From: Botryllus schlosseri
Lineage: Eukaryota
Reading direction: 5' to 3'
DNA length: 64,000 bases
Assembly: GCA_051294905.1 (NCBI GenBank)
Contig: CM119371.1
Span: 12,712,001 to 12,776,000, forward strand
This document shows positions 6,354 through 8,569 of the stretch, in pieces. Positions within the stretch are counted from its first letter, which is position 1. Each line of letters opens with the position of its first letter. The notes under the pieces are model-generated. The model saw only the letters and a program-made list of their open reading frames with translations. It was not told the origin of the DNA and made no database searches. The translations under genes were made by a program, and so were the position numbers.

Positions 6354-6414
6354 GGAACTCCCCGGTGCATCGCGTACCAAAGCGGTTTCGTGACGCTTCA
6401 AACCAAGATATAAA
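6354..6414 (+). promoter_or_regulatory. Putative core promoter of the peptide gene: NF-kB-like site and TATA box
   Basis: GGAACTCCCC at 6354-6363 matches GGGRNNYYCC on the minus strand; TATAAA at 6409-6414. A short non-coding exon follows and ends at a gtaagt donor (6468). Confidence 0.45.
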
Positions 6415-6562
6415 TGTGGTTGCTCACACCATTAAAGATCACACAACGAATTAACCTGCTCCAAGAAGTAAGTATTTGATGAATGTGCTATCCAGGTACG
6501 GGCTGATACTATTGTGTTCAACTTCAGAAATAAGCAAACGCGCAGAATTACTAACACCAGAT

Positions 6563-7887
6563 ATGAATTATTCTGGAATAACCTTGCTGATTTGTATTCT
6601 GGCCGGATTTACGTTTAAGAATGGCTGTTGTTCGGGCTGCAAGTAAGAATGTATAGTAAACTTACATTATTTACAACCGGTGGAGAGATTTACAGTAACA
6701 TGGAGGTTAAAATTGGTAATTGTTTAACTTACATGGTTATGATTGGTATATATGTATTTTTGAGTGTTCCTAACCTGGCCACGTATAGGCACTCCGCTAG
6801 TTCAATGCTCATGCTACCGGCTCCAAGATCCAATGGCAAAAATGATTCGAATCAATAAATGTGATACTTCTGTTTGGTTTTACATGATTTCATCTGATCA
6901 TGTTTTCCATAACTATGTATGCTGGGAATCTCATAGATTTCAGCATGTCGAAGAGGTGTATACCAGTCGTGCGTTTACTGTTCATATATACTGTGCATAT
7001 GTAGGAGCCTACTTCAAGATACACTGTATAGTTTTTGAGCTTTACGAAGGAACCTCTTGCAATTCGAATCTCGAAATTATTAGCTGTGATATTTAAAGTC
7101 ATAAATTAATTTTACATTACCCCGCAAACAAAGCTCAGTTCACAATCCACTCAATTCATTGAAAACGTACAATGCATGGACACTGACAATTATCCAGTTT
7201 TTCAATTTCCATGGATGTATAGTATTGTGTGATAGTACAAGAATAACGTACTCATATATTTTCAGTTATCCGGGGAAATGCGACAATGGTAAGTATATAT
7301 TTCTAGCGCTAAAGCATAAGCTTTACCAGTCTTGCATATACTGAATTATAGTAGTAACACATTTACAACTATGTTCCAACGAACCTTATATTACTTGGCA
7401 GCGTGTGACTCTGGCGACTGGCAACAAGTCATGGGTATGACCGGAACTGAAATCGTTAGTGTATTATTTAGCGACGTATGTTCACAGTTATAACAAGGAT
7501 GTCTTCGTCAACGCCATAATATTTTGTTTCTCTTGTGCCGGGATGATACATAATGCTGCGAATAACCAAATATTATTTCCATTTATTCTCAACTTTACAT
7601 GTTCCCCAAAAGATCTGGTGTTGGAATGCAAAGCAATTAGTTTAGGTTAGCGATAACAAGTAGGCCCCATTTTCCGAGCTATATATGTAGATCTCAACTT
7701 GAACATTTAGGCTCAGTACTCTAAATTCCTCTGTTTTTCAGTTGAAAATATCGAACTGCAACCATCACCCGGAGTCAATGACCAACCGTCTCCACACCAA
7801 CAAATACAGTATGGCGCGGAAATACTTCGGGATATCCAAGCTGAAACAATATTGCTTCAAAAGATTCTGGACAATATTTACTCTTAA
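6563..7887 (+). CDS. Small secreted cysteine-rich peptide precursor, 82 aa; join(6563..6642,7266..7288,7742..7887)
   Basis: GT-AG introns with matching phases (2/2, 1/1) give MNYSGITLLICILAGFTFKNGCCSGCNYPGKCDNVENIELQPSPGVNDQPSPHQQIQYGAEILRDIQAETILLQKILDNIYS*. Hydrophobic N-terminus, 60-nt 5' UTR intron (6468-6527), AATAAA at 8105, and a conserved paralogous exon at 2035. Confidence 0.75.
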
Positions 7888-8569
7888 CTGACTGCGGATT
7901 TCACACAGATGACCAGAATTGATTCTGCTCATTGATTGTATATTTTCTTCCCGTGGTCATTTATATCGCCGAAATTAAGATGCGCACTGTACATTCTGCT
8001 ACCCACCCACACAGCACTATACCGACGACGGCGAGACTTTCTATTGCCTGTTGTGCAGTATGAGGTACATTCGTGTATGTTGAAGAACCTTTTGAGTCAA
8101 CGCAAATAAATGCTATGTTTTGTCGTCATAATTGTGAGGTGATATAATATTGAAGTTAGACAAGTGGGGATCTTCAAGACCAAACGCCTTGACTGTGTAC
8201 TATCGGATGTTCGTGTATCTGCATAATAGACTTTTTACGCACGCTGTTTTCAATTACTTAACGATCTGTGTAACGTTATCGTCTGTGCGTCCCTTAACAG
8301 TGAGCAGTATAGACCTATAGCCTACCACAGGACGCATCAACCAGAATTAGGATAAGCGAGAAAAGATCCACGCTATATTTACGATTACCTCGCATAATGA
8401 TTCAGTGGCCTAGTTGCGTGTCAACATAGATGTTAGATGCTATAACGACGTGAAAATTGTAATATATGAAAAAGGCTCACAGTGCAGAACCTGTTTGTTT
8501 GTGAACGTGAACCTCTAATTTTCTGAGGTTCACAGAGAGAACGTGAACGTCACGTTCACACCATCCATA

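Follow-up and report, generated by a model that had tools for sequence, protein, structure and literature searches.

A transcribed microexon gene for a putative secreted four-cysteine peptide precursor in the ascidian Botryllus schlosseri

The question raised by this locus is whether a set of short exons in the B. schlosseri genome forms a real gene and, if so, what kind of peptide it encodes and how that peptide might be released. The original prediction for the window (the whole 64 000-nt stretch of DNA that was analysed) described a TATA box, a non-coding exon and three coding exons, one of them a microexon, which together would specify a secreted precursor with a CC-C-C cysteine pattern and a Cys-free acidic tail, and likened it both to alpha-conotoxins and to the defence peptides of ascidians. 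On recheck, the exons, their phases, the length of the precursor and the TATA box proved exact base for base (Table 1). All introns of the gene are of the GT-AG type, the coding part of exon 2 comprises 80 nt (positions 6563–6642) and the spliced product has 82 aa. As had been claimed, the gene is invisible to the open reading frame track, no part of it being found among the stop-to-stop frames of at least 100 aa. Skipping of the microexon was computed to lead to an immediate stop in the frame of the gene. An ATG-started peptide that combines a hydrophobic segment with a CC pair was found only here, on both strands of the whole 64 kb.

Table 1. Features of the peptide gene, its upstream copy and its promoter (positions in the window).
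Feature	Position	Strand	Evidence or remarks
NF-kB-like site (GGGRNNYYCC match)	6354..6363	-	45 nt upstream of TATA box
TATA box, TATAAA	6409-6414	+	sequence
Exon 1, non-coding	6437..6467 (5' end approximate)	+	joint 6467/6528, 12 X8 reads
Exon 2: 5' UTR, ATG 6563, signal-like segment, core cysteines 1-3	6528..6642	+	
Microexon, 23 nt: loop 2, fourth Cys, Asp33 (candidate cut site)	7266..7288	+	joints, allelic letters
Last coding exon (exon 4), 146 nt: acidic Pro-rich linker and 30-residue amphipathic helix	7742..7887	+	
3' UTR with AATAAA 8105-8110	7888..8110	+	reads to ~8285 bin; aligns to UTR of paralogue
Paralogous last exon and 3' UTR	2035..2438	+	open, stop 2175-2177, AATAAA 2433-2438

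The gene is transcribed and is spliced with its microexon. RNA was aligned at 90% likeness to positions 1500–8500 of the window, from four of the 24 listed runs, which come from four studies; raw RNA reads make up X8 and X12 (of which ∼ 6% and ∼ 13%, respectively, were read), and X1 and X4 are contigs that are only presumed to be RNA. All three predicted junctions were present: 6467/6528 (Table 1), 6642/7266 (six X8 reads and two X4 contigs) and 7288/7742 (four X8 reads and one contig each from X1 and X4). In addition, 63 X12 reads and three X8 reads join position 6642 to 7741 via 22 allelic microexon letters. The allelic microexon has three differences from the reference, two of them silent in the cysteine core and one a replacement at residue 34; the X12 allele retains Asp33 and the third and fourth Cys residues of the core. 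Among the joints listed, every one across the microexon includes it and none skips it. The bins of the gene in this alignment are covered in the exons and empty in the introns, and the longest exon 1 read extends 31 nt into the exon, to approximately position 6437, the TATA box beginning 28 nt before that point. The depth on the last exon is ∼ 225 in X12 and 42 in X8 (∼ 150 and ∼ 20 reads per kb per million, close paralogues included).

Some 4 kb upstream of the main gene, the window contains a second copy of its last exon and 3' UTR, which is 79% identical to it over 143 nt and has its own splice acceptor and an AATAAA signal that aligns with that of the main gene. The alignment of the two UTRs has a score of 65, compared with 29 for the best of 300 shuffles. 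Upstream exons of this copy were not found in positions 1–2035. Reads cover its coding part to a depth similar to that of the main gene; most of them exit the copy at position 2179 (247 X12 reads) and therefore derive either from an allele that has diverged or from a third copy. An X1 contig matches the upstream copy at positions 2159–2314 with one difference, and one X4 contig, which differs from the main gene in 13 of 115 exon 2 positions, appears to include the microexon. The peptide gene probably belongs to a small family of precursors of secreted peptides that is restricted to its lineage. On the substitutions that separate the two copies, the last exon is shown to be under purifying selection (dN/dS 0.36, Fisher p 0.014), with values of 0.52 (p 0.31) for its first 18 codons and 0.25 (p 0.03) for its last 28 codons. 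The best-conserved part of the exon is the one that encodes the C-terminal amphipathic helix.

The precursor consists, in this order, of a signal-like segment, a CC-x2-C-x5-C core, an acidic Pro-rich linker and a 30-residue amphipathic helix. Hydropathy supports the predicted signal-like N-terminus: the hydrophobic segment comprises residues 6–18, with a Kyte–Doolittle 7-mer peak of 3.5 at residues 8–14, and the n-region is devoid of basic residues. The -3/-1 rule permits signal cuts after residues 14, 15 and 17 and also after residues 23–26, which lie within the Cys cluster; a cut after Gly21 is disfavoured by the Lys at -3. The core has a net charge of +1 or +2. Its last Cys, Cys32, is immediately followed by Asp33, with no Gly that could serve for amidation, and the precursor carries neither dibasic nor RxxR sites. 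The tail of 50 residues has a net charge of -6, of which -4 is in the linker (residues 33–57) and -2 in the last 25 residues. Modelling of exon 4 with AlphaFold2 on a two-sequence alignment left its first 16 residues unstructured and predicted a single helix at residues 52–81 of the precursor with pLDDT >90. The amphipathicity of this helix is marked (its hydrophobic moment was reached by 2.3% of shuffles), it bears a heptad-like stripe of Ile and Leu residues, and charge windows within the modelled helix range from -1 to -2. Prediction of a three-copy complex of exon 4 gave a score of 0.15 against a mark of 0.32, a value that weighs neither for nor against such a complex. Thus, the Cys-free acidic tail of the original prediction was borne out for the linker but not for the conserved last part of the tail, which is a near-neutral amphipathic helix.

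Relatives were sought with single exons (26–48 aa) as queries, for which distant relatives can be missed. There was no match to exon 4 in a word-seeded protein search among candidates of 31–102 aa, and a search with the two-copy alignment among proteins of 84–2000 aa confirmed none of 1598 candidates; none of the 252 pattern matches in the JGI metagenomes was confirmed either. HMMER over 1.84 billion representatives yielded three matches at E ≤ 0.001, to repetitive proteins of oil palm, a gastropod and a dinoflagellate, all of which were rejected as summed weak matches. No relative of the peptide exons was found among the PDB sequences and no family among those of Pfam, and the best match for exon 4 in the ESM Atlas (0.85) is a lead only. 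The 27-residue N-terminal part, used alone, had no family in Pfam and no match in the ESM Atlas. That the peptide is lineage-specific, as had been proposed, is supported in so far as the protein databases searched with these single-exon queries hold no credible homologue. A description of the family was likewise absent from the titles, abstract openings and passages of the literature that were available, subscription journals, supplements and look-up by sequence being outside this scope; the gene might also appear, by an anonymous identifier, in the marker tables of single-cell atlases.

The nearest known precursors by design are those of ascidian haemocytes. According to the account in PMC7387483, most precursors of cationic peptides in Ciona are composed of a signal, an effector and an anionic helix, without basic sites and with acidic border residues, and styelins and clavanins are cleaved before D and DD; cleavage between Gly and Asp has been proposed for the haemocyte peptide CiEMa (PMC10888236), and general background on C-terminal prodomains is given in PMC10608444. 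As far as these sources describe them, the precursors of styelins, clavanins, Ci-MAM/Ci-PAP, CiEMa and botryllin are similar to the one studied here in having a signal, a short effector and an acidic and helical C-terminal region, and likewise in lacking a basic processing site, carrying Asp at the C-terminal border of the effector and belonging to a small multigene family. However, the effectors of those precursors are described as Cys-free cationic amphipathic helices, whereas here the effector would be a four-Cys peptide with a charge of +1 or +2, there is no amidation Gly, the terminal helix is near neutral and database searches revealed no sequence similarity. Botryllin, reported as a styelin-like precursor of 158 aa and +11 (PMC9966394), differs from this precursor.

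In the test for helices, charge windows were combined with a hydrophobicity scale. None of the 51 windows has the net charge of +3 to +10 in 18 residues that marks a Cys-free cationic effector, the maximum being +2. A net charge of -3 or lower, which marks an anionic helical pro-region, occurs in 6 of the 51 windows, all of them in or starting at the Pro-rich linker and not in the terminal helix. A cationic helix of the styelin/clavanin type was rejected on these two counts. An acidic residue at the border of the effector in the absence of a basic site is found in Asp33, where the cut is putative. What remains of the predicted clavanin- and styelin-like layout is therefore the order of signal, effector and anionic region and the Asp border, without the cationic helical effector.

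Among mature peptides, the nearest in spirit are St-CRP-1 and St-CRP-2 of Synoicum turgens, whose precursors lack a description in the passages available. These peptides are neutral and moderately antibacterial, and their authors remarked on the conotoxin-like Cys pattern and inferred no relationship from it (PMC13208793). As presented there, they share with the core an ascidian source, a mass of ∼ 2 kDa or less, a weak charge and a CC-x2-C start, but have six Cys residues (CC-C-C-CC) and are amidated, whereas the core has four and no Gly after the last of them.

Judging by analogy with these ascidian precursors and peptides, we tentatively favour, at somewhat less than an even chance, an ascidian haemocyte-type precursor of defence or immune signalling that releases a two-disulfide peptide of 11–18 residues. 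Entry into the secretory pathway would be by way of the hydrophobic segment, which would be removed after residue 14, 15 or 17, and the four core cysteines would form two disulfides. The cut before Asp33 would then be made by an ascidian protease inside a granule of the haemocyte type; we adopt this cut because processing before D and DD is described for styelins and clavanins and a Gly/Asp cut has been proposed for CiEMa. The freed peptide, with a net charge of +1 or +2, might serve host defence either by a modest antibacterial action, as the neutral St-CRPs do, or by immune signalling in the manner of CiEMa; it would not act as a cationic membrane-lytic helix. For products with both disulfides that end at residue 32, the calculated monoisotopic masses are 1880.71 (start at residue 15), 1823.69 (16), 1575.57 (18), 1300.41 (20), 1186.37 (21) and 1129.34 (22). 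The acidic linker and the conserved helix would constitute a pro-region for sorting, packing or shielding. A pro-region that neutralizes charge is, on the other hand, hardly needed, because the core is barely cationic, and the position of a neutral helix as the best-conserved part of the last exon would count against the pro-region reading.

That conservation suggests another possibility, unlikely in our view but to be kept in mind, namely that no cut follows the core and the precursor is a secreted mini-protein of 61–68 residues (6.5–7.5 kDa) with a disulfide head, a flexible linker and a working C-terminal amphipathic helix, which would serve in self-association or in binding to a membrane or receptor, for example by displaying or cross-linking the heads. 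It is consistent with the constraint on the last exon being strongest in the helix, with the modelling of 30 residues as one helix at pLDDT >90, with the heptad-like Ile/Leu stripe and a moment above 97.7% of the shuffles and with near neutrality of the helix in both copies. Conserved helical pro-regions are, however, also reported for the Ci-MAM family (PMC7387483), and an Asp directly after the core agrees with known ascidian processing. Still less probable is the case of a neuroendocrine or paracrine precursor, in which the disulfide core or the C-terminal helix would be the ligand of a GPCR. A small secreted precursor with a weak charge, moderate expression and a silent bias in the variation of the core would be in keeping with such a ligand, but dibasic and RxxR sites are missing, as is a signal for amidation. 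Exon 4 has no Pfam family and therefore no match to CRF, calcitonin or glucagon at the sensitivity of the search. The spacing of the insulin A chain, CC-x3-C-x8-C, does not fit the core, and a B chain is absent. CRF-like, calcitonin-like, guanylin and insulin A-chain identities were all rejected on their spacing or processing sites. We consider it highly improbable that no intact CC-C-C peptide is made, with the hydrophobic segment either retained as a signal anchor or cleaved within the Cys cluster. The absence of a basic n-region and the -3/-1-compatible sites after residues 23–26 would allow for it, but the ∼ 9–13 hydrophobic residues are few for an anchor, the sequence before the core also offers compatible sites, and the core residues are invariant in the alleles seen.

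The likeness to alpha-conotoxins, for which the locus had been singled out, is most likely a surface resemblance. The core has the CC-Xm-C-Xn-C framework given for these toxins in PMC4052327 and a similar size, but its 2/5 loops are outside the alpha-conotoxin classes described there (3/5 or 4/3–4/7). Loop 1, whose Pro/hydrophobic patch is the binding determinant in the toxins (PMC4052327), here consists of Ser and Gly; the sole Pro of the core is in loop 2 and the patch is absent. According to the same source, alpha-conotoxins are arranged as signal, pro-region and C-terminal toxin, with a single intron in the pro-region, whereas here the core directly follows the signal, the pro-region lies behind it and one of the two coding introns is inside the core. 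Membership of the A-superfamily was rejected, as the loops, the loop 1 patch, the domain order and the introns spoke against it, and the bare framework for it, in the comparison with that source. A convergent mimic, that is, a nicotinic antagonist directed against predators or fouling larvae or an endogenous cholinergic modulator, is a different matter but very unlikely. In its favour are the CC-C-C pattern and the flanking residues that match Vc1.1 (PMC4278219, Table 1), where the CC pair is likewise preceded by Gly and followed by Ser and the two residues after the third Cys agree by eye, a match that is not quantified; also, I2/I4 conotoxins (PMC4278219) show that toxins can have a C-terminal propeptide. 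Against it are the 2/5 loops, a loop 1 with neither Pro nor hydrophobic patch, the finding that nAChRs were not blocked by a framework I peptide of 4/8 spacing, whose fold was changed (PMC7277881), and the choice of the finding for this very resemblance. It is just as improbable that a chordate has independently evolved a minimal peptide of the alpha-conotoxin framework, with 2/5 spacing and by way of a 23-nt microexon, for storage behind a conserved helical pro-domain and for use on a nicotinic or other neuronal target, whether in chemical defence or in endogenous modulation. If the peptide did act at a receptor, cone-snail venom would have a striking convergent counterpart, but on the evidence this is unlikely.

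For the haemocyte-type defence reading, the promoter adds little. NF-kB binds the consensus GGGRNNYYCC, and the match above the TATA box (Table 1) fits this reading weakly; there are five such matches in the window, compared with 3.8 expected, and the site was picked post hoc. An ETS-IRF-like composite motif is located at positions 6322–6331 (minus strand), 23 nt above the NF-kB-like site. It was set aside as evidence, being one of four in the window (2.8 expected) and post hoc, as was a CRE half-site, which is too common (118 matches) and likewise post hoc.

With a GC content of 39%, remnants of hAT and LINE elements and an NLR gene, the window has the look of a compact animal genome. Repeat DNA with a fragment of a LINE reverse transcriptase lies between the two peptide copies (4074–5971 and 5506–5955, minus strand) and draws numerous multi-copy reads, among them GT-AG joints of low count that start at positions 5208 and 5398. 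An NLR-type gene at 28546–30820 (plus strand) encodes a NACHT domain (Pfam E 2.6e-17) followed by an LRR-like stretch; its frame breaks near 29946, and the gene is therefore spliced or damaged. The closest sequences in the NACHT search were six Logan proteins (41–51%). Candidate exons of a single-pass receptor (51153–51275, 55788–55887 and ∼ 56850–57113, plus strand) include a Thr-rich stalk, an exon for the transmembrane part and one for the cytoplasmic part that has several Tyr-x-x-hydrophobic-like motifs, the open reading frame of the tail having no match in Pfam. There are two hAT-type transposase frames, one of 571 aa at 41676–43391 (minus strand) with a weak match to the hAT dimerisation domain and an open-ended one of 643 aa at 62070–64000 (plus strand) with DUF4371. 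An imperfect palindrome of 450 nt (56193–56645, 87%) has ends that recur at 37818–37985, 40737–40992 and 41586–41658, as in a MITE-like family, and arrays of the GGAGTC hexamer in 42–48-nt units are found at 33800–33958 and 35697–35864.

Should the haemocyte-type reading hold, the gene would take the ascidian design of an effector followed by an Asp-bordered pro-region beyond linear cationic helices, to a two-disulfide scaffold of minimal size. It would also provide a gene-level candidate for how small Cys-rich peptides of ascidians, such as the St-CRPs, are made. The predicted products, of 1.1–1.9 kDa, can be readily sought by mass spectrometry and readily synthesized, and the family represents a kind of gene that would be missed by annotation based on open reading frames.
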